Notes: generated by a model from the sequence alone, not told the origin. A DNA stretch of 36,757 nucleotides from an uncultured cyanobacterium (GCA_963807635.1 CAWEDJ010000060.1:1-36757); one strand, 5' to 3'; positions 1-14,000 are shown, numbered from the stretch's first letter. Program-made: numbers and translations.

Positions 1-3
1 ATT

Positions 4-170
4 GGGATCTGTTTTTGAGACAGTTGACATCCTCCCCGCCCTAAAGGGCTAGGATTCCCAAACCTCACGATTTAGGTTTCTGTTTCATAGCACCCACCTT
101 AACAGATTTACTCTGTTCTAGTCTTACGGTCGCTCCACAGACTGAAACTCTGCTAAGTCCAAGCAGCCAA
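4..170 (-). ncRNA. Putative TnpB reRNA/omegaRNA: scaffold overlapping the tnpB 3' end and right end, plus a flank-derived guide (CTGTCTCAAAAACAGATCCC)
   Basis: Inferred from known TnpB biology and the position of the right end. Boundaries are approximate. Confidence 0.5.
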
Positions 171-1339
171 AATATTTTTACTCGCGTTCACATCCCGATT
201 GTGGTTAGAACCACATTCAGGACAAGTCCATTCGCGATATATTTAAGAGGCATTTTATCGACAATATTGCCCACAGGAAAACTACAACGCTTGGAACTGG
301 GGAACCATCGGTCAATAGCGACCAAGTTCCTTCCGTACCAACGACACTTGTAGTTCAGTTGTCGAATCAACTCACTCCACCCGCTATCCGAAATAGCCAA
401 GGCGAGTTTGTGATTTTTGACCATATTCTTAACAGCTCAACGACTCAACAGCAATTGTTTGATTTTCGCGTACCAATTGAGTCGTAGTTTTGTGCAAGAA
501 ATCTTTTCGAGAATCCGAGATTTTCAGGTGAATTTTAGCGACCTTTATTCTCCTCTCGCTTTTTCTCTTATTCTTGGAACCTTTCTGTTTACGAGAAAGA
601 TTCTTTTTGCGCTTTCTTCAAGCGTTTACGATGCTTTTTGAAATGCTTGGGATTAGCGAGCTTTTCACCATTACTGGTCGCAATCAGGCTGGTTACTCCC
701 AAATCTATTCCGACAGCATTCTCGCTAACGGACAAGGGTTGAATGGTTGGATCATCGAATCTAATCGAGATATGCCAACGTCCAGAGGGGTGAAGGCTGA
801 GAGTCTGTTACACTGCTTGGTTCACACTCCTTGGGAATTTGTCTAGACCATCTAAATCGGCAATGCTTCAGAGCATTTGGCAAGATAAATTTCTTTATTC
901 TTAAAATTTAAAAGCCGATTTAGTAAAATCGGCACTGCCACCATTTCGTTTCTTCTTGAAGTTGGGATATTTAGCCCTTCCTGCGAAGAAATTAGTGAAA
1001 AGCAGTCTGGAGATGTCGAAGTCCTTGTTTGCATGTGGGACTGAGCTAACCTCATTGAGAAAATCAAGCTTCTTCTTGCTTTTTCCACTGAGTAAGCATG
1101 GTAGAGGTTTCGGGATATCCGACTCTTTTTCTTGTCTTTCGTACCAAGCTTGTGTTTTTGTGGAGAGCTTTGTTGTACACCAATCTTCACACAGCCCTTA
1201 GTCTGCCGTCAACAGCGACTCTTGCCTCTAGCGTTGGGTAACATCGGTAACGAAAAAGCTTTTTGCCATATTTCACAGACTAACATATTAATGACAAAGC
1301 CGTCCTAAAGGACGTTGGCTTTTCAAACCCATTTTTCTG
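24..1339 (-). mobile_element. IS200/IS605-family element, tnpB-only (IS1341-like), non-autonomous
   Basis: Minus-strand right end reads ...GAATCCTAGCCCTTTAGGGCGGGGAGGATGTCAA (hairpin, then terminal TCAA at 27..24). Left end has the hairpin AAGCCAACGTCCTTTAGGACGGCTTT (~1296-1322), preceded by TTCAT (1344..1340). tnpB fills the interior; no tnpA and no target duplication. Confidence 0.85.
65..1269 (-). pseudogene. tnpB: TnpB RNA-guided nuclease, multiply frameshifted (real decay or sequencing error)
   Basis: Fragments stitched across frames: start MAKSF; GCVRLVYNKALH; FKFKNKEIYLAKC; RuvC-I region GIDLG; MVKNHKLALAISDSGWSELIRQLNYKCRWYGR; SSKRCS..CPEC Zn finger; RDVNASKNI; stop at 67..65. Confidence 0.9.
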
Positions 1340-2665
1340 ATGAATCCGATGAATCTAGGGGCGATCGCGGAGTTTCACTTTCTGAGGGTGTTTCTTCGGG
1401 CTTTTTCTTCAAACAAAGCCTTTTCTTCTAAAATTGGCAACTTCTATCGTCTCCTCAACATAGAGTGAAAATTTATAGGATGTTTGGGAAGAATTGGTCT
1501 ATGGGTTCCTCGGTTTCGGAAATTTCGGGACTTTCTTCTTCATGGTCTTCTTCTTTTTCTTCCTCAGAGGCTATTTCGAGAGGCGTTTCGGCGATCGCTT
1601 TTCGATTATGGTTGGTGCCGATGGATCGGTAATTATTTGAGAGATTTCTGAATCATTCTCTTCTTCCCAATCATCATCCCAATTTTCTTCTATTTCGTTT
1701 TCGGCTAAGGTCTCGGTAGAAGGAACCCCTTCAGACAATTCGACGGTTTCAATTTCAGTAATTACTTCCGTCACTGAGATATCGGATTCTTCGGAGTCCG
1801 AATTTTCGGTGGTGATCACGCTCTCTTGAACAGTTTCAGTCTTGATGACCTCGACGGGATTGGTTGCTTCCTTGGGTTCCCCAGCATCCTCCTCAACGGT
1901 TTCGATCGCCTCTAGGGCGGCAGTAATAGTTTCCGTTTTAGCAGGTGTGGGCTTTTTCCCGGTATAATTTGCTAAAAAATCCCTGTTTTTTAGGTTTGGC
2001 AACCGTTGAGAAGTTCTAGCTCTGGGCGGGGTGATGGTAGCTTCAGTTTTTTCGGGCAAAGGGGCTTCACCACTACTTTCGATCGCTTCTCTCGTTAAGA
2101 CTGGCTCCACCGCTTCAACTTCTGGGGTAACAGGACTTTCAGGCTCAACCGTCTTCTCAGGAATTTCCTGTGCGATTTCCTCATTGGCATTAGGGGCGAT
2201 CGCGTCTTCTGGTGATACCGATTCAGGAATTTCAGTTTCCACAACAAAAGGAGTTTCAGCAGGCGTTTCCGTCAAAGATTCCGTTGTCTCGACAGGCGTT
2301 ACCGTTTCAACCGCAGTCTTAGCAATGGGTTGGACTTTCGCTTTTTTCTTCCCGCAATCCGCCCCCGATCCAATTGAGCAAAGAAAAGGTTTTAATGCCG
2401 CTTGTTTTTCGGGATTGGCGATCGCGTCCCGCAAAGAAATCGTTTGCCAGGCAAAAGGACAAAACCAACACCACTGCCGCCATCTGTCCTAACAAAGCAC
2501 CGCCCGTAAAGCGTCCCGCACACACCCAGAGAATTAAGCCATAGAATAATCCCACCCCACTCCACAAGAAATCATCCTTACGATGTAACTTGGGGGCAAA
2601 AACTCAGAAAAGAAGAGGACAACACTAGCCAGTGCAATCGCGATCGCTAAGATATATGCCAACAT
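1340..2665 (-). CDS. ycf66: Ycf66-family membrane protein with a long acidic low-complexity tail (frameshifted here; 3' end apparently interrupted by the IS)
   Basis: ATG at 2665 gives MLAYILAIAIALASVVLFF..LHRKDDFLWSGVGLFYGLILWVCAGRFTGGALLGQ (Ycf66_N pattern), continuing into the E/T/P-rich ORF 1571..2434 and further acidic fragments to ~1340. Confidence 0.75.
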
Positions 2666-2785
2666 GAAGGGTTGCTCCGTCGAGATTCCTTATCCCATTT
2701 TGAAGCATCTTGTCCGTTCTGTTACAGTTTTTTCTATTTACTAGGATTGTTTTTGAGTTTCCAAAACATTAAGAATCGTAATTGG

Positions 2786-2799
2786 GTAGTCATTAATAC
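2786..2799. promoter_or_regulatory. Candidate NtcA site GTAGTCATTAATAC
   Basis: Exact GTA-N8-TAC in the divergent intergenic region upstream of the ABC ATPase. No -10 box at canonical ~22-nt spacing was found. Confidence 0.5.
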
Positions 2800-2891
2800 C
2801 TTAAATTTAAGTAGATTTTGCCAGGCTATTGTTACACCAAGTTCTTTTAACTAGCTGGTTGTAATTAAAACATCAAATAAATCTTAGACTT

Positions 2892-2937
2892 GATCTCCCC
2901 TGTCCCTCTTAATAAGGAGAGTGCCGATAGGTGGGGA
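2892..2937. repeat. Degenerate cyanobacterial short dispersed palindromic repeat
   Basis: CTCCCCTGTCCCTCTTAATAAGGAGAGTGCCGATAGGTGGGGA resembles the common CCCCCTT-AATAAGGGGG type intergenic repeat. Confidence 0.5.
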
Positions 2938-3013
2938 ATTTTACAATTTTCAACCCCTAATTACTTAGACATATTACTTAGACATCCCTGAAATCGCAAA
3001 AGGAGTTCAATCC

Positions 3014-4561
3014 ATGACCACTGAAACCCTCAGTCCCGATGTTCAGACCATCGATCCTCCCGAACTCGAAGTCGTTAATCTGACGAAACAATTTGGTTCC
3101 TTTACCGCCCTGGATCAGGTTTCTCTCAAGGTTAAATCTGGCTCTTTTCACGCGCTCCTTGGCGAAAATGGGGCAGGAAAAAGCACCCTCGTTAAATGCG
3201 TCATGGGTTTCTATACTCCCACTCACGGTGATGTTTTAGTGGGTAAACACTCCCGCGAAATTAATACTCCCCGCGATGCCCACCACTACGGAATCGGCAT
3301 GGTTTATCAGCATTTTACTTCAGTCCCCTCCATGACCGTCGCTGAAAATTTAGTCCTGTCTCGCCTGGATTCCGATAATCTCATCAACTGGAAACAGGAA
3401 CATCAAGACTTGCAAGCTTTCATGGAGACGACCCCCTTTCGGATTCCCCTGAATACGCCCGTCGCCCAACTCGCCGCAGGTCAAAAGCAAAAGTTAGAAA
3501 TTCTCAAACAGATCTATCTCAAAAGCCGCATTCTGATTTTGGATGAACCTACTTCGGTATTAACGCCCCAGGAAGCAGATGAAATCTTAGGATTACTGCG
3601 AAAAGAAGTGGACGAGAAACGTTTAAGTATTTTGATGATTAGTCATAAATTTCGAGAAGTCACCGCTTTTGCCGATGAAATTACCGTCCTACGCAAAGGC
3701 AAATTAGCAGGTCATGGCATTGTCAAAGAATTGACCGTCGCTGATATGAGTCAGATGATGATGGGGGAGAAAAAAGAGCCAGAATCCATCGAAAAGACCA
3801 TTCAACAAGAAAATAAGACTGTTTTAGAAGTTAAGGAACTTCATGCTAATAAAGATAACGGTTTACCCGCCCTAGAAGGCATTAATTTAACGGTTAATCA
3901 GGGAGAAATTGTGGGGATTGCGGGGGTGAGTGGTAATGGGCAACGGGAATTGGTCGAGGTTTTAGCAGGACAACGCCCTTTAACCAGGGGTCAATTATTT
4001 GTCAATGGTCAAATCTATGGCGCGACCCGTGCGGAAATGTTCCGTCATCAGGTTTTTGCTCTTCCTGAAGAACCTCTGAGAAATGCCTGTGTACCGTCGA
4101 TGAGTGTGGCGGAAAATATGGCGTTGCGAACCTTTGATCGTCCTCCCCAGGCAAAGGCGGGTTTTTTATTGATCCTCCGAGCCATTCGAGACGCGGCTAA
4201 AGGTCTGATTGAAACGTTTTCGGTTAAAACCCCTTCCCCTGAAACACCGATCGCGAATTTGTCGGGCGGTAATGTACAAAGGGCTGTTTTAGCGAGGGAA
4301 CTGTCGGCGAGTCATATTAACCTTTTGATTGCGGCAAATCCTTGTTTTGGGTTAGATTTTCGAGCAGTGGAGTATATTCACGGTCAAATTGGGTCAGCAC
4401 GAAATCGGGGGGTTGCAGTGTTGTTGGTGAGTGAAGATTTGGATGAACTTCTCAAATTATCTGACCGTATTCTAGTAATAAGTGAGGGAAAAATTGTCTA
4501 TGAAAGCGCGATCGCCGAAGCCGATTTTGGCATAATTGGGCAACGGATGGCGGGCCATTAA
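3014..4561 (+). CDS. ABC importer ATP-binding protein, two NBDs (CUT2/BMP-associated, NupA/YufO-like)
   Basis: Walker A GENGAGKS; GIGMVYQHF; ILILDEPT; second degenerate NBD with GIAGVSGNGQ, LSGGNVQR and LLVSEDLDE. Confidence 0.92.
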   Translation: MTTETLSPDVQTIDPPELEVVNLTKQFGSFTALDQVSLKVKSGSFHALLGENGAGKSTLVKCVMGFYTPTHGDVLVGKHSREINTPRDAHHYGIGMVYQHFTSVPSMTVAENLVLSRLDSDNLINWKQEHQDLQAFMETTPFRIPLNTPVAQLAAGQKQKLEILKQIYLKSRILILDEPTSVLTPQEADEILGLLRKEVDEKRLSILMISHKFREVTAFADEITVLRKGKLAGHGIVKELTVADMSQMMMGEKKEPESIEKTIQQENKTVLEVKELHANKDNGLPALEGINLTVNQGEIVGIAGVSGNGQRELVEVLAGQRPLTRGQLFVNGQIYGATRAEMFRHQVFALPEEPLRNACVPSMSVAENMALRTFDRPPQAKAGFLLILRAIRDAAKGLIETFSVKTPSPETPIANLSGGNVQRAVLARELSASHINLLIAANPCFGLDFRAVEYIHGQIGSARNRGVAVLLVSEDLDELLKLSDRILVISEGKIVYESAIAEADFGIIGQRMAGH

Positions 4562-4564
4562 AAA
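4505..4564 (+). repeat. 60-bp direct repeat, copy 1 (last codons and stop of the ABC gene; HIP1 near its start)
   Basis: AGCGCGATCGCCGAAGCCGATTTTGGCATAATTGGGCAACGGATGGCGGGCCATTAAAAA; 58/60 identical to 5140..5199. Confidence 0.97.
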
Positions 4565-4581
4565 GAGGGTGAACAACGGGC

Positions 4582-4612
4582 TACAATAATACTTGTACTT
4601 ATAGAGGTACAA
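4582..4612 (+). promoter_or_regulatory. TA promoter -10 (TACAAT) and operator palindrome TTGTAC-N8-GTACAA
   Basis: TACAAT at 4582-4587 and an inverted repeat at 4593-4612 just before yefM. GTAC-core palindromes are typical of YefM/Axe autorepression. Confidence 0.65.
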
Positions 4613-4620
4613 CTCTAGCG

Positions 4621-4875
4621 ATGAACATAGTCAACTTTAGCGAAGCAAAAAGTAACTTTAAATCGGTATTAGATACTGTATCTAATGACAAAAATTGTGC
4701 TGTAATTGTTAGAAGGGATGCAGAAGAAGCTGTAGTCATGTCTAAAAGTTATTATGACAGTTTGATGGAAACCGTTTATCTTTTAAAATCTCCCGCAAAT
4801 GCTCAACATTTAGCAGAAGCGATCGCCGAGTACAAGGCAGGAAAAACACAAAAACACGATTTAATTGATGCGTAA
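4621..4875 (+). CDS. yefM: YefM/Phd antitoxin
   Basis: 84 aa, MNIVNFSEAKSNFKSVLD..SLMETVYLLKSPANAQHL, a YefM/Axe pattern; overlaps the toxin start. Confidence 0.93.
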   Translation: MNIVNFSEAKSNFKSVLDTVSNDKNCAVIVRRDAEEAVVMSKSYYDSLMETVYLLKSPANAQHLAEAIAEYKAGKTQKHDLIDA

Positions 4876-5131
4876 ATTAGCTTGGGGTAGCAAAGCGTGG
4901 AAAGATTATCTTTATTGGCAATCTCAGGATAAAAAAACTTTAAAAAGAATTAATAAGCTTATTGAAGATACTTTATCTAATCCCTTTGTCGGCATAGGGA
5001 AACCCGAACCTCTGAAAGAGAATTTGTCAGGTTTTTGGTCTCGTCGCATTGATGAAACAAATCGTCTTGTCTATGCTATTGATGATGATTATCTGACAAT
5101 TCTTTCTTGTCGCTATCATTACCCAGAATAA
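4868..5131 (+). CDS. yoeB: YoeB/Txe mRNA interferase toxin
   Basis: AWKDYLYWQSQDKK..GIGKPEPLKENLSGFWSRRIDETNRLVY..SCRYHY. Confidence 0.95.
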   Translation: MRKLAWGSKAWKDYLYWQSQDKKTLKRINKLIEDTLSNPFVGIGKPEPLKENLSGFWSRRIDETNRLVYAIDDDYLTILSCRYHYPE

Positions 5132-5139
5132 AAATAATC

Positions 5140-5199
5140 AGCGCGATCGCCGAAGCCGATTTTGGCATGATTGGGCAACGGATGGCAGGCCATTAAAAA
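5140..5199 (+). repeat. 60-bp direct repeat, copy 2 (orphan 3' end of the ABC gene)
   Basis: Encodes SAIAEADFGMIGQRMAGH*; two differences from copy 1, both at third codon positions. Confidence 0.97.
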
Positions 5200-5215
5200 A
5201 AGACAAAAGGCTCGT

Positions 5216-5245
5216 GGGGACATGATATTTTATGTCCTTTGTTTT
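5216..5245 (+). terminator. Intrinsic terminator
   Basis: Stem-loop GGACATGA-TATT-TTATGTCC followed by TTTGTTTT. Confidence 0.6.
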
Positions 5246-5265
5246 AATCGATAATTGAGGGAAAA

Positions 5266-6048
5266 CTAATTAGCCCGTGCCAAAGCTTGAGTAATAACTT
5301 CATAGGTCGCTTTATCATAAAAGCGAGAGTCTGTAATAGTATTGCCAGTGCTATCAGTAACAGCCGATTTTAATCCAGCAGTTTTAGTTGGTTGAGTATT
5401 CAAAGCAGATGCAGAAGCATGAATTTCTACAGATTTTCTACTGTTACTGGTTCCAGTCGTATTATTAACACAGACATAGAAACCTTTTGGAGTCGTGCTG
5501 GTCGTGCTGGGAATTTGCGTCCATCCCGTAGTCGCTCCATTTGCACAACCCGTAGTTAAAGGTGCATCGGCAATCAGATCAACTAACAAATGTACTCCCC
5601 ATGTACCTGTATAAGCACCATTTGAATCAAGACCTGGCCCCCAACGATAAATCGCTAAATTTCCTAACCAGGGATCGCCAGGATTTTGCTGAGTATAGTA
5701 AATAATATCTTCTGAAAGGCCTGGTACTCTTATTGCTAAGATAACTGTTTTTCCTGTTTGAGAAAGATCGGCAAAAGTAGGCGCATTTAACTCTAAATTG
5801 GAAAAAGAAACATCATCTCTAATCAAAGAAGCTGTTTTAACTTCTTCACTAATAAAATCAACGGCGCGACCAAGATTGTATTGAATATCGCCAGCCGTAT
5901 TAGCCGCAACATTTTCTCTGGCAATCACAAAAATCCCATAGCCAGCCGCCATCACCACAAAAAACATTCCTACAGAAGCAAGGATCAGTTCAATAAGGGT
6001 AAAACCAGAATTATTTGTTTTTCTGATGAGATTAAGATAGTTTGTCAT
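5266..6048 (-). CDS. Minor type IV pilin, PilW-like
   Basis: Class III signal SG|FTLIELIL plus hydrophobic helix; IIYY..IYRWGP motif; last gene of the pilin cluster. Confidence 0.85.
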   Translation of the reverse strand: MTNYLNLIRKTNNSGFTLIELILASVGMFFVVMAAGYGIFVIARENVAANTAGDIQYNLGRAVDFISEEVKTASLIRDDVSFSNLELNAPTFADLSQTGKTVILAIRVPGLSEDIIYYTQQNPGDPWLGNLAIYRWGPGLDSNGAYTGTWGVHLLVDLIADAPLTTGCANGATTGWTQIPSTTSTTPKGFYVCVNNTTGTSNSRKSVEIHASASALNTQPTKTAGLKSAVTDSTGNTITDSRFYDKATYEVITQALARAN

Positions 6049-6060
6049 AAAAAATAAGTC

Positions 6061-6651
6061 CTAAATAGATGATTTACAGTAATCTGAATCAACACCGCTC
6101 GCATTTCCTATCGGTGGTGCAATGTCTTCGGTGTAAATACCACTTCTCATAATTCCCAAAAAGTTTGACAAAACTAAACAATATTTAGCGTGAGTTTTAG
6201 AAGAGTGAAATACAATAGTCCCCAGATTGGTACTATTCCCTTTGTAAGAAAAACGGATTGTTTTGCCTGGAAAATTTTCTGTAACGTTTACTCCACTTAG
6301 GTCAACTCCTGAGCTATTCAAACAGCCGATATACTTAGTTGCAGTGTCCACAGAAAGATAGGTCGGATTAATATCCGTATTCATTACAACTCTGCATTCC
6401 TTTCCCATTTTAATCGCATTTCGTTGTGCTTCCTGTAAAGCTCCCTTGACCTCATAAAGTGAGTTTTGAACCTTATTTTTGTTCATAATGTCCAACATAT
6501 TGACAATAGCAATAGACGCTAAAATTCCTGTTATCAAAGACACAACAATAGTTTCGAGGAGTGTCCATCCTGAATTCTTATAAACCCGATCCGAACCAAA
6601 ACGGCCACACTTGTTTGAAAAAAAGACTAGGTAGAAAAATGTTTTCAGCAT
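6061..6651 (-). CDS. Minor type IV pilin, FimT/FimU-like (paralog 2)
   Basis: SG|WTLLETIVV; ALQEAQRNAIKMGKEC; FSYKGN; CLVLSNFLGIMRSG. Confidence 0.85.
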   Translation of the reverse strand: MLKTFFYLVFFSNKCGRFGSDRVYKNSGWTLLETIVVSLITGILASIAIVNMLDIMNKNKVQNSLYEVKGALQEAQRNAIKMGKECRVVMNTDINPTYLSVDTATKYIGCLNSSGVDLSGVNVTENFPGKTIRFSYKGNSTNLGTIVFHSSKTHAKYCLVLSNFLGIMRSGIYTEDIAPPIGNASGVDSDYCKSSI

Positions 6652-6731
6652 CCTGATTAATTCTCCTTAACAGTACAAGATTAGAATTGTCAAGTATTGT
6701 ATTAAGATTTTTCAGGATTTTTCGGGTTCGG

Positions 6732-6789
6732 GTTCAAAGATGTTACTTTTTTTCCCTGAAAGCATTATTCTGTCGTTCAAAGATGTTAC
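6732..6789. repeat. Two exact 15-bp direct repeats GTTCAAAGATGTTAC (6732-6746, 6775-6789)
   Basis: Seen directly in the gap between the two FimT-like genes. Confidence 0.85.
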
Positions 6790-6811
6790 CTTTTTGCTGT
6801 GAAATGAAATT

Positions 6812-7360
6812 TCAAAAAGATGAAGTACAAGTTGTTCCGCTATAAGTACCTGATCGCATAATACCGATCCCTGCGGAAATGACTAGACAACGTTGGTCAA
6901 CTGTTTTTGTGGGATTACTAAGGATAAGGGTTAAATCACTCGTATTACTGGGATTTCCTTTATAAGAAAAACTGACACTTGTTGTACCAGAGGGGGCAGT
7001 TGCAAGCGTCGTACCAGAACTAAGTGTCACAGGACTCGTTATACAGACATTAGTAGAAGTGTTGGTACTGCTGACTCCCGTAGAACTTAAATTAACAGTA
7101 CAGGTTCGTCCATTCTTCATGGAAGAGCGTTGAGCTTCTCGTATCGCGCCAGTAACTTCGTTCATACTGGATTGCAGGGAATTTCTCGCCATCAAGCCTG
7201 TCATCTGAGGTAGTACCGCCGCCGCCAGAATACCTGTTATGACTGAAATCACCGCCATCTCGATCAGAGTCCAACCCTGATTAGGAACAGCTAAGGGCTT
7301 GGGGAGGCATAACTTCTGTATAAAGTGTTGCCAGTATAGACGTGTTATTTGTAGTATCAT
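6812..7360 (-). CDS. Minor type IV pilin, FimT/FimU-like (paralog 1)
   Basis: QG|WTLIEMAVI; AIREAQRSSMKNGRTC; FSYKGN; CLVISAGIGIMRSG. Start uncertain because it overlaps the upstream gene. Confidence 0.85.
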   Translation of the reverse strand: MILQITRLYWQHFIQKLCLPKPLAVPNQGWTLIEMAVISVITGILAAAVLPQMTGLMARNSLQSSMNEVTGAIREAQRSSMKNGRTCTVNLSSTGVSSTNTSTNVCITSPVTLSSGTTLATAPSGTTSVSFSYKGNPSNTSDLTLILSNPTKTVDQRCLVISAGIGIMRSGTYSGTTCTSSF

Positions 7361-7944
7361 CTTGAATTCGATCCGTGTCGCTTGTACTATCAGTTGGAAG
7401 TCCTACTCGATAGGTAATTTTTAAAATTTGGGGATTGTCATTGTAGCCTTCAGTTATACGAACTAAGCGATATTCTTTGCCCATCAGTTTTTTGGTTGTA
7501 TTAGCAGAAAATGTTGTTGATGTTTCAGATGTTTTAACAAGCTGAGACTGTCTTCTTCCCACAGGAGTAGTAGTTACGGAAACAGCAGCAGGAGATGTCC
7601 CTGTCATTGTCGTATTAGATCCTAAAGTAGACTGTAAATCTCCAGCATAAGAAGTAGTAAAGACGGAGTTGCATTTGTTTTTGGGATCTGATAATTGAGA
7701 AGCAGCCAAAGATTTAACCTGCTCTAAATCTTGCTGAATCCAATAGGTTGCTTGAGCCTGTCTTTCTGCTTTAAGTTGAAAAAGCGTTGCATACAAAAGT
7801 CCATTCAATGCACCCATCATCGTAAAAAAGACCACCATCATGGCCACTAAAACCTCTAGCATCGACAAGCCAGAATCGGGAGAAGAGCGATCCCGATCGG
7901 CATAGAAACAGAATTAATTTTAAAGGCATAGATTTATTTGGCAT
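7281..7944 (-). CDS. Minor type IV pilin, PilV-like (one frameshift in the leader, ~7895)
   Basis: GGAGG then ATG at 7944 (MPNKSMPLKL..); after the shift DSG|LSMLEVLVAMM..QATYWIQQDLEQVK. Confidence 0.8.
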
Positions 7945-7963
7945 TGGGTTTAATCTTCCTCCT

Positions 7964-9390
7964 TTATCGCTGTTTCCGTTGCCAAGTAGAAATATTTCTG
8001 AGGATAGGCGGGGCATTTTTGGGCTGTAATCCAATTTCATCCCAGCGAGCTGCTTGATAAACGACAATATTAGAAGTAGAAGAGCCACAGCCTCCGCTAT
8101 TTGACCAATCGTATGCCCAAACCGTCCCTTTGATCCCTCCTACACCACCCCCCGATCCCCCTATTCCAACTGTATAAGCGGGCGCGAGAATAAAGGTTTC
8201 TAGGCGATTATTTCCAGATAAACAAATTTTGGGTCGGGTAGGAGGCGTTACTGTTGCTTGGGCATAACCAAAAATTTGGAAATCCGTTGGTTGACAACCC
8301 GCGAATCGCTTGATTACTGGCATCCGTGCATTTATGAATAATATCGCTATTTGCTCCCACATTAATACTTCCATCAAGATAAAACGTCACTCGTTGGCCT
8401 GGCGTAATCGTAAGATTATTTGAGCCTGAATTGAAGGCAATTTCATTAACCCTGTATTCATAGACAGAAACCGATTGACCCGCGATCGTTTTTGTGATTG
8501 CCGTATCCCCAGCACGGGGTAAGGTAATATTTCCAGAGGGATTATTCAGGGTATTCGCAGGGGAAGGATTGGAGGGTAAATCAGGAAATTGTAGATTCGT
8601 ATATTTAGCGGTATAGGGTTGATTCGTAGTAGGGTCTGTTCCTGTTACCGAAACTGTACTGGGAGAAGTTGTACAATCTCCTAATAAAACATCTCCTTGA
8701 ATCGTATTACTGCCAGGGCTACCACTAGATAGCCAGACTCCAGGGACTCCTGTGGTTAGGGGTGGACTGGGATCTACGGGAATTTGGACTTGTAAACGAG
8801 CATTGGAATTACTCAGTTGATTACTATTTTTCGCCCTTCCTTCTACGGTTAGCGTTGCTGTACCAGGAGCAACTCCCAGGGTCGGTGTGTATTGATAACT
8901 AATGAGTCGATATTCTCCCTGGTCTGTATTACTACTATTGACTGGGAACCAACTCTGATCAGTCGCGATCGCGGTGACCTTGGTTAAATCCGTACTAGTT
9001 CCACGCAATCTGGCTCGTGAGGGTATTCACCGTTGCCCAACTTTGGGGTGGGGGTGAAGAGGTAACACTAGGATCTTGGCATTGACCACTACCATTGCGG
9101 GAAACACAATCAGGAAACATGGAAATATAACGATTTTGATTGATTAAATCTAAAACACGAGTTACCCCTGTTTCTGCGATCGCCAATCCCTCGGCAGTCG
9201 ATTTTTGAGCAATCGTATTTTTTTGATTATTTTGGGAACTGGCCATAATCCCCAAACTGGCCACTATCAGCACTGAGACCCATCATGATGACCAACGGTA
9301 AAACAAAACCGTGATCGCCCTTAGACAGGCTCAGTTGACCAAGAGATCCGAGTTTGAGGTGGGAACGAAGAAAAAAAGAAAAGGATTCAT
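7964..9390 (-). CDS. Large PilX-like minor pilin (frameshifts ~9275, ~9000, ~8305)
   Basis: ATG at 9390..DHG|FVLPLVIMMGL (no Glu5, as in PilX/GspK); LAIAETGVTR PilX-N pattern. ORFs 8995..9273, 8208..9008 and 7964..8377 join into one protein. Confidence 0.78.
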
Positions 9391-9450
9391 AAGCGTACTA
9401 GGTACATCCATAACCCATAGGTCGGGAAACAGAATTTCCTACTTCTCTAT

Positions 9451-9492
9451 AATCTATGATTTGGATCACTTTTTACTGTGATCTAGATCACG
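9451..9492 (-). promoter_or_regulatory. CRP (SyCRP1-type) class II promoter of the pilin operon
   Basis: TGTGATCTAGATCACG at 9477-9492 (15/16 to the ideal TGTGATCTAGATCACA); weaker site TATGATTTGGATCACT at 9455-9470; -10 TAGATT (9456..9451) at about class II spacing. Confidence 0.8.
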
Positions 9493-10014
9493 ACAAAGAG
9501 TAAAAGCAAGAAAAATTGACAATTTTTGTAGAGATACAGGAGAAAACTCGTAGAGTTAGGGATTTAATTCTAGTAGTAACTTCAGTGTATTCTCTAGGAC
9601 ATCAACAGTTTTTAGTTGGATTAGTGATTTCGCTTGAATTTCAGATTGTTAATTCATTTGTCCTCATAAATTAGGTAACAGTAAGCGATCGCCGTTCGTG
9701 ATAGAACCAAAAGATGGAATCGGGTGAAACTCAGATTTTGTCCTACACCGTGAAGCCTACAAATTTTTTGTAAATTTTCTGTGAGTCACTGAATTTTTGC
9801 TGATGCTCTCTCAGACAAGCCATAAAATCTCTCAACCAGTGGGGCTAGTCAAGTTTGTAAAGGGCGATCGCCGTTCGATTAAATTTCCAAAATTCTTTGC
9901 CTATAAATAGTTTTCAGTGATTTTAAACCTGCAACATCTGGGTTATATTGGGTGAACGCCAATAAAAATTTCAGAACTTAAAAACTATAAAATATTTTGT
10001 CTTAAACAGTCAAT

Positions 10015-10977
10015 ATGTCCGTTTATTCCCTGATTATCCCTATTTATAACGAAGAAGAAAACATTGGCGAACTCTATCGCCGCGTTAGTTTGGTCATGGA
10101 TCGCCTAGACGAATCCGTAGAGCTAATTTTTATTAATGATGGCAGTCGAGATAATTCCCTCAATCTGATCCGAGAATTACAGGAAAAAGACGATCGCGTT
10201 TGTTACCTGAGTCTAGCTCGAAATTTTGGCCATCAAATTGCAGTTACCGCAGGCTTAAACTTTGCTAGGGGTCAAGCTGTGATTATCCTCGATGCGGATT
10301 TACAAGATCCCCCCGAACTAATTCCCGATCTATTAGAAAAATGGCGACAGGGCTACCAAGTCATCTACGCTCAACGCACTAAACGCAAAAAAGAAGGCTG
10401 GTTCAAACGTTTTACCGCCTATATTTTTTATCGACTGTTACAACAATTAGCCGATGTGAATATTCCCACCGACACAGGGGATTTTTGCCTAATGGACAGA
10501 CGAGTCGTCAATTTACTCAACTCCATGCCCGAACAAAATCGCTATATTCGGGGACTCCGCTCCTGGGTCGGATTTCGGCAAACCGCCATTCAATTTGAGC
10601 GAGATCCGCGTTTTGCAGGAGAAGTGAAATATACGTTTCGTAAATCTTTTACCTTGGCGATTAATAGCCTAGTCTCTTTTTCTAAGGTTCCCCTGCGTCT
10701 TTCCACTTATTTAGGCTTATTTTCTGCATTTTTAGCCGCTTTGATGGCTTTATTGGTTTTATATTGGCGTTTATATCAACCCCATTCTCCCCTAACAGGA
10801 TTTGCGGCGATTATGATTGCCATTTTATTTTTAGGTTCAGTCCAATTGGTCTGTATTGGAATTTTAGGAGAATATATCGGGCGAATTTATGAAGAGGTTA
10901 AAGGCCGACCGCTTTATACTTTGGCGGAAGTGAGTGGTTTCGAGTACATTCCGACAAAGGAAGATTTCCATGAATAA
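10015..10977 (+). CDS. GT2 polyprenol-phosphate glycosyltransferase (GtrB/YkcC-like)
   Basis: [44 protein letters not shown]; two C-terminal TM helices. Confidence 0.92.
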
Positions 10978-11041
10978 TTTGCCTGGGTAGCTCGTTTTCC
11001 TCTATCTTCAAGCGTGGCCGTCTGAATGAGTGAAATACCGT

Positions 11042-14000
11042 TTAAAAACGTTGCTCATATTCCACAATACCGCGACTATCATCGGCAAAATTACTAGAAC
11101 CCCGAATTGTCGTATTTTCATTTAAACGATATCTTAACCCCCATTGAGGAGGGCGATCAGTATTAACAATCTTTTGGATAGAAACCGATAAATCATTACT
11201 CAAATCTACCCCAGCTTCGGCGGCAACCCCTAACTGATTGGAGGTCGTTCTTTCCTTGTCATTAATTAAAGGCGTGGGAAAAATGCGGAATTGACTTAAC
11301 CCCAATGCTTCCCCAATTTGTCCCTGAACTCCGCCTAAAACCGCCGATCCCGCTAAATTCGCCAGACCGATCGCGCTATCCTCTTGACCTAATGTATTCA
11401 CAAAACCCCCACCGAGGAGAGCTATAATTTCCCGTTGACTGCGACGAGGACTACTGCTTAATTGGATACTTTTAGTCAATTGACTAGCATAACCCTGTAC
11501 CAAAGCTTGAATTCGGATCATCTGCAAACTTTCACTATTCGCCGAAAAAGGTTCATTGATTTCTGAAGAGAGGGGGCTGGCATTCAGGCTATTACGGCTG
11601 GTTTCGGTGGCGGCACTGACCAAACGCAGGTTTAGGTAGGGATCAAGCCCGCGATGGGGGCTAAATTGGGCGATATTTTCATTTCCGCCTGCTAACCGTA
11701 ATTGACTGGCAAAAAGATTAATTTGCCCGCTTTTGAGGGAAATTGTTCCTTCAGGTAGTAATTGTCCTGTATTTCCATTGAGAGTAACCGTTCCCGTTGC
11801 CAAAAAATCCAGAACGGGCGATCTTTGGATGCGAATATCTTCACCCAGGTTTAAATTGAGTCCCTTAAATTCAGCCGTGTGATTGATTTCTCCTGTCTGT
11901 TCTAGGTTAGGCAGAGCTTCTCCAAGCAAGATTTTTCCCTTAAATAAATCCAGATTTCCGCCAATATCGGGTTCAACCACGCTCCCTGTGATCTGAATAT
12001 TGCCTTTGATCCCGCCCTGGTAGAGTTCCTTGAGTTTAAAGGCCGAATTTTCAAAGGTAATGGTTAAAGGATTTGCCTGGGCGATCGCCTTAAACAACGG
12101 TAATGATCCCGCGATCGCCACATTGCCACCGTCTAATTGACCCGTCCAGGAAACATCCAGTTGATTCAAATCCAGATGCAGATTGCCGTTAACTTGGGTG
12201 AGGGGAGCATCGGGCAGAATTTGGGCCGCGATCGTGGCATTTTCTAAACTGACATTGCCTTCTCCCTGAATTCCTCTCAAAATCTGGGTCTGGGGATCGA
12301 TGCGCCCAAAAACATCGAGTTGTACCAATCCCTTTCCGTTGATCCAACGAAGTTCTCCCTTAGTCGCCAGGGCAATCAGTCTCAATGCCTCATTTTTAGC
12401 CTTAAAACTGAGATTAAAGCGATCGCTGTCGGGTTGCACGGAGGCAAAGGGGAAAACGTAGGGAATCGATCCCTCTAAAATGAGCGGTTCAGTTTTCTGC
12501 TGAAGAATGCTATTAATCGCAAAATCAAAACGTCCCTCTTGATAGGCAAAATTTCCTGCGGTTGCCTGTAACTGGGTTTGATTGAGAGTCACATTCTCAA
12601 TTTGCAAATTCCCTTTTGCCTGGGGATTACTGCGATTTCCCGCTAAAGAAATAGTCGCATTCAGGGAACCATCTAAATCTAAGCCTTGGGGATTCGTTAT
12701 CAGGCTTGCTAGGGGTTTTAGGGGAATATTCGCTAGTTGTAATTCTCCAATTTGGCTTTTTTCTCCTACTTTTCCCGTCAATACAAACAAACTTTTTCCC
12801 GTCTGTAACCGTAACGGCTCTAAAGTCAGGATGCCATTTTGCCAATTGCCTTGTAATTGCAAGTTATCTATCTGTAAATTTGCCCATCGCCAATCTTTTC
12901 CTGTGAAATTAAAAGCCGTTTCGATTTTTCCGCCCATTTCTCCCTGAACCGCAATTTTTCCTGATAATTGACCCCGAAGACTGTCTAAATCGGGTAGCGG
13001 CGAATTTTCTGCCCGTTGTTGCCGTTGTTGCTTGAGTTGGGCATTGATTTCCGAGAGATAACTCAATTGTTTGTGAATAGATGACTGGGGTAAACCCGCT
13101 TCGCCAATGCCTGGGTGGGATTCATTTTGTCATAGAGATCGGCGGCTTTACTGTAAACAGGTAACTTTAAACCGCGTTTGAGGTCATCAAGACGGAAAAT
13201 TTGCAGGGTTTGCAGAATTTCTTCAATATTGCTTTCTGGTAGGCCAATTTCACCCTGAAAACGAGGGTTTTGACTATTAAAGCTCACTTTTCCTTGGAAG
13301 GGATAGTTCTGATTTTTGAGGGATAATTGGCTATTGCTGACCGTTAATACGCCCTGGCGATAGGCTAAACTCCCGAAAAGGCGATCGCCGCTCAGGGTTC
13401 CGTAACGGGGATTATCAATAACGACCTTTACCCCTAAAATACTGGAATCCGAGAGATTAATTCTGAAATTTCCCGATAAATCTCCTGTGAAGGGCATTAA
13501 CTGTTTAATAGAATCAGTATTAGCGGTAACTAGGGACGATTGGATCGCAACTTCTTTGACTAGAACCAGGGGAAACTGTTGAGCCGTGACAAATAATAGA
13601 TTTTGTTGGCGATCGCCCGTCACCTGTATCTCTTTTCGTTTGAAATTAAAAGAAACAGGCTTAAATTGCGGATCTAGGAACAGATTAAGCTGATCATTTT
13701 TTCCCAGTAATTCTAGGGTTAATCCTTTCGCGGCAGTTTTATCAATTTTTCCTTGTAAATAGGGATCAAAGGCGATCTGATTAATCGTTAAATCCTGTAG
13801 AGCTAAATTGCCTTGGATATCAGGATTTTTTAGGGAACCTCGTACTTTTCCGTCAAAATCAACTTTTCCTGTCTGGGTAATTTTTTGAGGTGAGACAGTC
13901 TGAAAAAGTCGCGCTAACGCCAGATTTTTAACCTTAACCTCTAAATCAACCGCCTGGATCAGGTTTACAGACAGATCAGAACGAAATAATGAATCTAAAG

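Follow-up and report, generated by a model that had tools for sequence, protein, structure and literature searches.

Insertion of restriction-modification genes with a long duplication of the target is said to have been described by Nobusato et al. in 2000. Passages of Furuta et al. 2010 (PMC2853133) describe restriction-modification units with long target duplications of variable length, often lying across stop codons and including a case in Microcystis. Here we analyse a comparable arrangement in an uncultured cyanobacterium, a yefM-yoeB toxin-antitoxin (TA) pair between two copies of the 3' end of an ABC ATPase gene, located in a stretch of 36,757 nt (GCA_963807635.1 CAWEDJ010000060.1:1-36757; hereafter the window, coordinates being counted from its first letter). 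A first-pass annotation of this stretch had proposed an integrase-less route of cassette capture; an architecture of this kind is already on record in the restriction-modification cases. The pattern is real, recurrent and explicable by known recombination routes; what appears new is the TA cargo and the bias of the junctions towards HIP1, a palindrome of 8 nt that is highly iterated in cyanobacteria, and in the open-access literature we found no report of either in such duplications. The best reading is that the duplication is a recombination scar, neither an attachment site nor a dedicated cassette, and we consider it moderately probable that it arose by one-sided homologous recombination between two alleles combined with an illegitimate joint at a HIP1 microhomology in the tail of the anchor gene.

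The locus resembles the long target duplications, as far as the passages of Furuta et al. describe them, in that an addiction-type unit stands between direct repeats longer than 30 bp, which often span a start or stop codon, with no mobility gene and with an empty site in relatives. The repeat has 60 bp and encloses 575 bp, compared with the limits of more than 30 bp and less than 20 kb in that work; no mobility gene lies in or beside the insert, the sole mobile-element trace of the window being a TnpB/Cas12f-like fragment at 188-424, about 4 kb off; and an empty site with one copy was found in sequencing run X4 (record 20, one low-depth contig), more clearly at two further sites of the genus, those of clpB and of a TPR gene. 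In contrast, the insert holds yefM-yoeB instead of restriction and modification genes, and neither 'toxin' nor 'HIP1' occurs in the main text of PMC2853133. It also differs in that the two copies come from different coding alleles, the junctions are HIP1-biased and both putative parent alleles are seen.

Homology-facilitated illegitimate recombination (HFIR) proceeds through 3-10 bp of microhomology and normally deletes DNA, according to the relevant part of PMC3240628. The present locus shares with it one homologous anchor, one illegitimate joint at a short microhomology (here long homology on one side and 9-11 nt at the joint) and variable endpoints. Unlike HFIR, which usually deletes recipient DNA, the joint lies inside the anchor gene and the tail is duplicated without deletion; the case made here is one from sequence comparison. 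Modules of the Vibrio cholerae type VI secretion effector-immunity arrays, and orphan modules of Rhs and contact-dependent inhibition systems, are added on the gene-proximal side by proposed HFIR, giving stacks with stranded 3' remnants (PMC5361080, in part). A three-copy stack behind the TPR gene of the window's own genome is similar; however, in V. cholerae the cargo is the gene's own variable 3' end, while in the present genus unrelated core genes (ABC ATPase, clpB, gatA, carB, tsaD, deaminase) serve as anchors for a cargo of free-standing TA-like modules. Integrative elements in gene 3' ends (attL/attR) also leave a restored gene end and a displaced original end, but the present cases have no integrase and no fixed att core length (24-363 coding nt), are spread over many host genes and, at one SDR gene, show different junctions. 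The minimal mobile elements of Neisseria likewise hold variable cargo between conserved flanks and spread by homologous recombination without mobility genes, although they are not defined by duplicated gene ends and the concept covers spread, not first entry.

The locus contains the following features:

3014..4561, plus strand: host gene, a two-domain ABC ATPase of the sugar/nucleoside-transporter-like type (515 aa); the homology anchor
4505..4564, plus strand: repeat copy 1, the ABC gene's functional 3' end of 18 codons plus stop, with HIP1 at 4508-4515
4558..4612, plus strand: promoter-like site from the promoter scan (-10-like TACAAT at 4582-4587) and inverted-repeat operator-like site TTGTAC-N8-GTACAA (4593-4612)
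4621..4875, plus strand: yefM, predicted antitoxin, 84 aa (PF02604, TIGR01552)
4868..5131, plus strand: yoeB, predicted toxin, full length, 87 aa (PF06769, TIGR02116), residues 3-85 aligning without gaps to a solved YoeB (2a6q)
5132..5150, plus strand: module-side right flank ending in HIP1 (5143-5150), the proposed illegitimate joint, with a 9-11 nt microhomology AG(C/T)GCGATC(GC) common to the ABC tail
5140..5199, plus strand: repeat copy 2, a stranded ABC gene tail apparently from another allele, non-coding here
5214..5239, plus strand: dispersed palindrome like the repetitive extragenic palindromic (REP) elements, which may double as terminator
5266..6048, minus strand: pilin-like gene, convergent and highly variable, which closes a prepilin-like cluster and forms the right-hand flank (weak matches to pilin hidden Markov models, below cut-off)

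The direct repeat (4505-4564 and 5140-5199) was confirmed as annotated, with 58 of 60 positions identical at a period of 635 nt (60/63 when extended to 63 nt) and a genome-wide BLAST E value of 2e-21. Both differences lie at third codon positions, as had been stated; nevertheless only one of them is synonymous, the other changing Ile to Met. In each copy HIP1 begins 3 nt from the edge, at 4508 and 5143 respectively. The intervening 575 bp consist of the promoter-like site, which is weak and near chance level (three sites found by the scan against 2.3 expected), the operator-like inverted repeat, whose role we assume by analogy with YefM-family operators, and the two genes, which show the YefM-YoeB type II architecture with the antitoxin gene overlapping the downstream toxin gene and both above family cut-offs, so far as function can be predicted. 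In agreement with the annotation, no integrase or recombinase family was matched when the 31 open reading frames (ORFs) of the window were scanned against Pfam. The terminator placed behind copy 2 has to be revised: the hairpin 5214-5239 passes the terminator scan, yet it is one copy of the dispersed REP-like palindrome (86 strand-specific matches in the genome, many loci being counted on both strands), presumably of the GTAG type. A scan of positions 1-12000 gave no Rfam match to a structured RNA. No plasmid carrier of the TA pair was identified among 50 plasmid records matching parts of it, none of which covered more than 80% of the query, the best with 71% identity.

Three alleles of the locus exist. 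The duplicated one was found, among the 40 relatives searched for the locus structure, in two congeners besides the window's genome (G000, an assembly of 4.03 Mb in 107 contigs), each with its own substitutions: G004, where it is intact, and G003. Contigs of the independent runs X13 and X8 also bridge the junction of yoeB and copy 2. An internal yoeB deletion of 217 bp (after 4881 to 5099) is common to G003, the metagenome locus L076 and run X8, and in G003 and X8 copy 2 is retained despite it; these alleles, and the non-TA cargo persisting elsewhere, weaken the earlier proposal that the TA pair selects against loop-out. The second allele is empty: record 20 of run X4 (1433 nt, depth 7) joins 4564, the ABC end, to 5217 in the REP-like palindrome, and the same run holds a separate TA-bearing record at depth 131, coverage of that strain being up to 4927. 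Such empty-site alleles had been named as a check, and they were found here and at the clpB and TPR sites in congeners. The third allele is that of L076, which has the ABC gene, yefM and the deleted yoeB without copy 2; it departs from the window sequence directly after AGCGCGATC, and after 38 unrelated nt come the REP-like palindrome and the pilin-like gene. This point of divergence is exactly the HIP1 core, and an L076-type allele joined to the empty allele at their common HIP1-centred microhomology gives exactly the structure of the window. A duplicated ABC end was seen in none of the 79 remaining metagenome loci with this gene (L077-L155), and 10 distant orthologues (L004-L013) have neither TA genes nor duplication.

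Between G000 and G004 only 2 of 632 nt differ in the cargo and copy 2 (4568-5199), whereas the ABC gene has 70 differences in 1551 nt and the downstream DNA diverges by 12-15%; on this comparison the cargo with copy 2 has evidently been exchanged laterally between species in recent times. Copy 2 has five variable sites across the three species, all at third codon positions. There are also two sites where one genome has the same base in both of its copies and another genome has a different one, which speaks for ongoing exchange with coding alleles or for conversion of one copy by the other.

The focal site belongs to a genus-wide pattern. Self-comparison of G000 gave 11 gene-3'-end duplications, in ABC, clpB, marC, carB, tsaD, gatA, SDR, a GGDEF gene, deaminase and twice in the TPR gene; together with six cases of congeners, sampled through 169 loci centred on TA genes within the genus (G000 itself contributing some), they form a hand-curated set of 17. 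Before this set was fixed the following were dropped: insertion sequence (IS) and paralogue repeats (C1, C12, C36, C39 IS, C41 IS, C47, C49, C85, a DUF4351 pair, L247), short internal repeats (C7, C69 pentapeptide-like), matches with doubtful host ORFs or fewer than 20 coding nt (C11, C16 reverse, C41, C42, C44, C83, C107), and a C28 stretch of odd composition. The duplicated coding length varies from 24 to 363 nt over the 17 cases, with many host genes and varied cargo, and one SDR gene shows two different junctions. The cargo in G000 is mostly HicAB, DUF433-DUF5615, Phd-ParE, DUF29, Uma2 and a Gp49-like pair, besides a sulfatase pair and an unassigned gene. TA-like ORFs (a seed-based set of 99) follow 6 of the 9 tested host genes but 65 of 2560 others (Fisher P 3e-8), so that an association with cargo genes, on which the annotation had partly staked its proposal, is borne out; a bracketing repeat of any kind was counted, without matched control, at 13 of 68 testable TA-like clusters.

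Comparison with congeners provides the empty counterparts. The clpB site has an exact empty allele in G003, G004 and G003 have exact empty alleles without the stack of three stranded TPR tails, and the gatA-Uma2 unit occurs without duplication in G001 and G004, ending at the same junction. For marC, four of the five congeners gave no orthologue and the fifth no more than a fragment. Over the 17 cases 99 of the 166 differences between copies lie at third codon positions (P 4e-12); therefore the copies descend from two coding alleles, not from one duplicated target, and in this respect the annotation, which derived one copy from another allele, was right. Its further suggestion, that the cassette had brought the replacement gene end, fits tsaD, where copy 1 appears to be the foreign one, while gatA and clpB, with copy 2 as the foreign copy, are opposite or ambiguous, and the direction is unreadable at the focal locus.

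Behind the TPR gene of G000 (C105:58100-60750, L031) the three stranded tails separate stacked TA-like modules in the order ParE pair with DUF4926, HicAB, DUF1902-HicA, then a RelB-like gene, resembling an integron array without integrase. Outside the genus, flanks of up to 1.5 kb yielded no convincing gene-3'-end case among 155 testable TA loci (21 cyanobacterial yoeB, 54 other yoeB, 25 HicA, 26 DUF433 and 29 Phd, some of them from this genus): 45 had a bracketing repeat, mostly intergenic and resembling dispersed elements, and the gene-3'-end class comprised the focal site, clpB and two doubtful overlaps (L170, L220). Duplications of 5' ends gave 28 raw matches in G000 against 29 for 3' ends, and since the uncurated 5' set is mostly IS or paralogue repeats, no asymmetry between the ends can be read from these numbers. 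A mirror-image case was observed at G000:C16:56517-57602 (L021), where a DUF29 gene lies between two ABC-gene 5' ends (238 bp, 85%), G004 (L075) having a single start.

A HIP1 hexamer is present at the upstream junction in 6 of 16 cases (index case excluded; within 8-12 nt, in either copy), in comparison with 6.0-9.4% of matched random positions (P 2e-4 to 2e-3); at the downstream edge it was seen in 0-1 of 17, and simulated BLAST alignment edges had it in 16 of 400. By these counts HIP1 appears to be favoured about five-fold, on one side only, but is not required. Several junctions cut through HIP1 at differing offsets. Close yoeB relatives at unrelated cyanobacterial sites (L157, L159, L162, L231) have HIP1 within about 15 nt after the stop, in degenerate form in L156 and L014, and a DUF433-DUF5615 relative (L482) ends in HIP1 where copy 2 of clpB starts. 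Because several close relatives of yoeB carry HIP1 just past the stop at other places, the motif probably came with the TA module. Across G000, TA-like genes do not clearly have HIP1 behind their stop codons more often than other genes (12/99 versus 221/2725). In the literature, as far as the passages on HIP1 go, the motif has been linked to site-specific and illegitimate recombination (PMC4390886), to a HIP1-bounded excision at smtB and to the promotion of deletions (PMC13756078), and to a methylation-dependent increase of transformation efficiency (bioRxiv 2024.09.10.611283); its function is described as unsettled after three decades (PMC4390886, PMC13756078).

The favoured recombination between two alleles can be outlined as follows. 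Allele A consists of the ABC gene, yefM-yoeB and the module's own HIP1-like flank, without a second copy, and allele B, the empty one, of the ABC gene with the REP-like palindrome and the pilin-like gene directly behind it; both coexist in the genus. DNA of one allele would enter a cell with the other, most likely by natural transformation, and be incorporated on one side by homologous recombination, presumably dependent on RecA. On the other side the site just after yoeB would be joined to a point in the ABC gene 54 nt short of its end through the 9-11 nt microhomology centred on HIP1, which may act as a passive, abundant microhomology or may be actively processed; either allele could have been the donor. 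The product would have an intact gene, with nothing lost and a second gene tail stranded. Afterwards the cargo with copy 2 would spread between species by ordinary homologous recombination.

Several points weigh against this outline. The empty allele is one low-depth contig, with a joint marked 'between: not known', a likeness of 85% and 39 letters on its short side, and L076 is also a single contig, which may be derived by replacement of copy 2 and not ancestral. HIP1 is absent from 10 of the 17 junctions; a genome-wide check of the HIP1-linked capture route proposed earlier upheld the enrichment at junctions, but not a HIP1-specific route. The automated count found the hexamer within 30 nt of the stop in only 5 of 24 cyanobacterial yoeB loci. 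The carB copy of G001 begins 26 nt upstream of that of G000, whose edge lies in CGATCG, and this suggests that at least one HIP1-like edge is secondary trimming. The 17 cases were curated by hand, six of them drawn via TA genes. Finally, experimental HFIR normally gives deletion instead of duplication, and in Escherichia coli conjugation variable duplications of 109-950 bp arose from circles by single crossover (both from passages of PMC3240628).

A further-reaching version of the favoured recombination would make HIP1 a polar joint for non-destructive gene capture in nature, the HIP1 flanking the module being a selected mobility signal, possibly with methylation-dependent processing. Small TA or defence modules with HIP1 past the last stop could then be added behind any conserved gene, the gene serving as homology anchor and HIP1 in its tail as the second joint, and integron-like stacks would be built without integrase. 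This version is tentative, and we regard it as unlikely.

Among the alternatives a circle route survives best, although it is improbable. Excision between two HIP1 sites, or another illegitimate excision, would release a small circle with the gene tail and the TA pair, which would enter the empty allele by a Campbell-type single crossover. Circles gave duplications of variable length in E. coli (PMC3240628), and a HIP1-bounded excision is known from smtB (PMC13756078), each as reported in part of the source. The segment shared by G000 and G004, cargo plus copy 2 at 4568-5199, is exactly one repeat unit, and the end product would be the same as that of the favoured two-allele recombination. However, the homology comprises 60 bp only, and a circle linearised on uptake would have even this split; excision would truncate donor core genes such as gatA, carB and tsaD; and no joint leading back, as expected of a circle or tandem amplification, was listed in the four runs, a weak negative from contigs only.

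Slightly less likely again is an initially longer duplication with any junction, trimmed later by deletion between the HIP1 of the module and that of the stranded tail, so that HIP1 would mark erosion and not entry. The longer carB copy of G001 fits this idea, as does the reported promotion of deletions by HIP1 (passages of PMC4390886 and PMC13756078); the bias towards the upstream edge would be expected here too. Additionally, the sequence preceding the SDR junction in G000 resembles four loci from the DUF29 search, suggesting a cut inside a cargo gene. Against trimming, no longer ABC copy 2 was seen in the three genomes, L076 or the four runs, and L076 would be a direct precursor with the same breakpoint and without duplication.

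A host-encoded, HIP1-directed enzyme acting in trans, either a site-specific recombinase or a methylation-guided nickase, would turn the joint into a dedicated capture route. The enrichment of HIP1 at junctions and the methylation-dependent gain in transformation (part of bioRxiv 2024.09.10.611283) speak for it. It is nevertheless quite doubtful: most junctions lack HIP1, those that cut through the motif do so at different offsets, and with 4758 sites in 4.03 Mb HIP1 is by far the likeliest long microhomology anyway; a candidate enzyme was neither identified nor searched for.

That a break-induced insertion produced a true target-site duplication within one allele, the mechanism put forward for restriction-modification units, is very improbable. 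The concentration of differences at third positions argues for a non-coding copy from another coding allele and not for random decay, and YoeB-family toxins are RNases, so the cargo supplies no DNA break; in favour of this alternative stands the identical architecture, with repeats across stop codons and the Microcystis case, in the relevant passages of PMC2853133. An assembly artefact, which might be suspected as G000 consists of 107 contigs, of which C67 ends in another version of the upstream region with slight differences, and which the annotation had named as grounds for refutation, was rejected because two congeneric species (G003, G004) and independent runs (X8, X13) show the same junction with different substitutions.

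With both putative parents, product and breakpoint at hand, the locus is a natural, fully specified case in which a role of HIP1 as a recombination joint is directly testable, and the pattern hints at a part of HIP1 in gene exchange. It also shows a concrete way in which TA modules that lack mobility genes could accumulate behind core genes, and it suggests reading 'long target duplications' as two-allele chimeras, not as duplicated targets.

Some further observations were made. At G000:C41:62985-64032 (L037) and C103:8103-9573, TA-like modules lie between short direct repeats in intergenic DNA, with HIP1-like sites at either end. In Lyngbya (L162:1858-2979) a 218-bp repeat, 98% identical, brackets the yoeB locus, starts with HIP1 directly after the yoeB stop and overlaps the 5' end of a gene on the other strand. 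At G000:C28:87249-91400 (L023) composition and ORFs switch abruptly to a non-host-like type, possibly through a chimeric contig or contamination. The last 1.2 kb of contig C67 nearly duplicate about 2200-3363 of the window with few differences, which suggests either that the assembly includes a second strain or that the segment is repeated. About 147 bp at 2835-2980 are missing from G004 and G003; they resemble a repeat in L008 and may be a miniature inverted-repeat transposable element. The ABC ATPase gene (3014-4561) stands without permease genes, and in several relatives its orthologue is followed by what we take to be a cysteine hydrolase-like gene. An inverted match of 18/20 between the TA operator region (4595-4614) and the coding end of a pilin-like gene (6830-6849) is probably due to chance. 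The prepilin-like cluster (5266-9273, minus strand) has 69-86% nucleotide identity between congeners and is far more divergent than the ABC gene; G001 has a different pilin-like ending, which the ABC gene does not adjoin.

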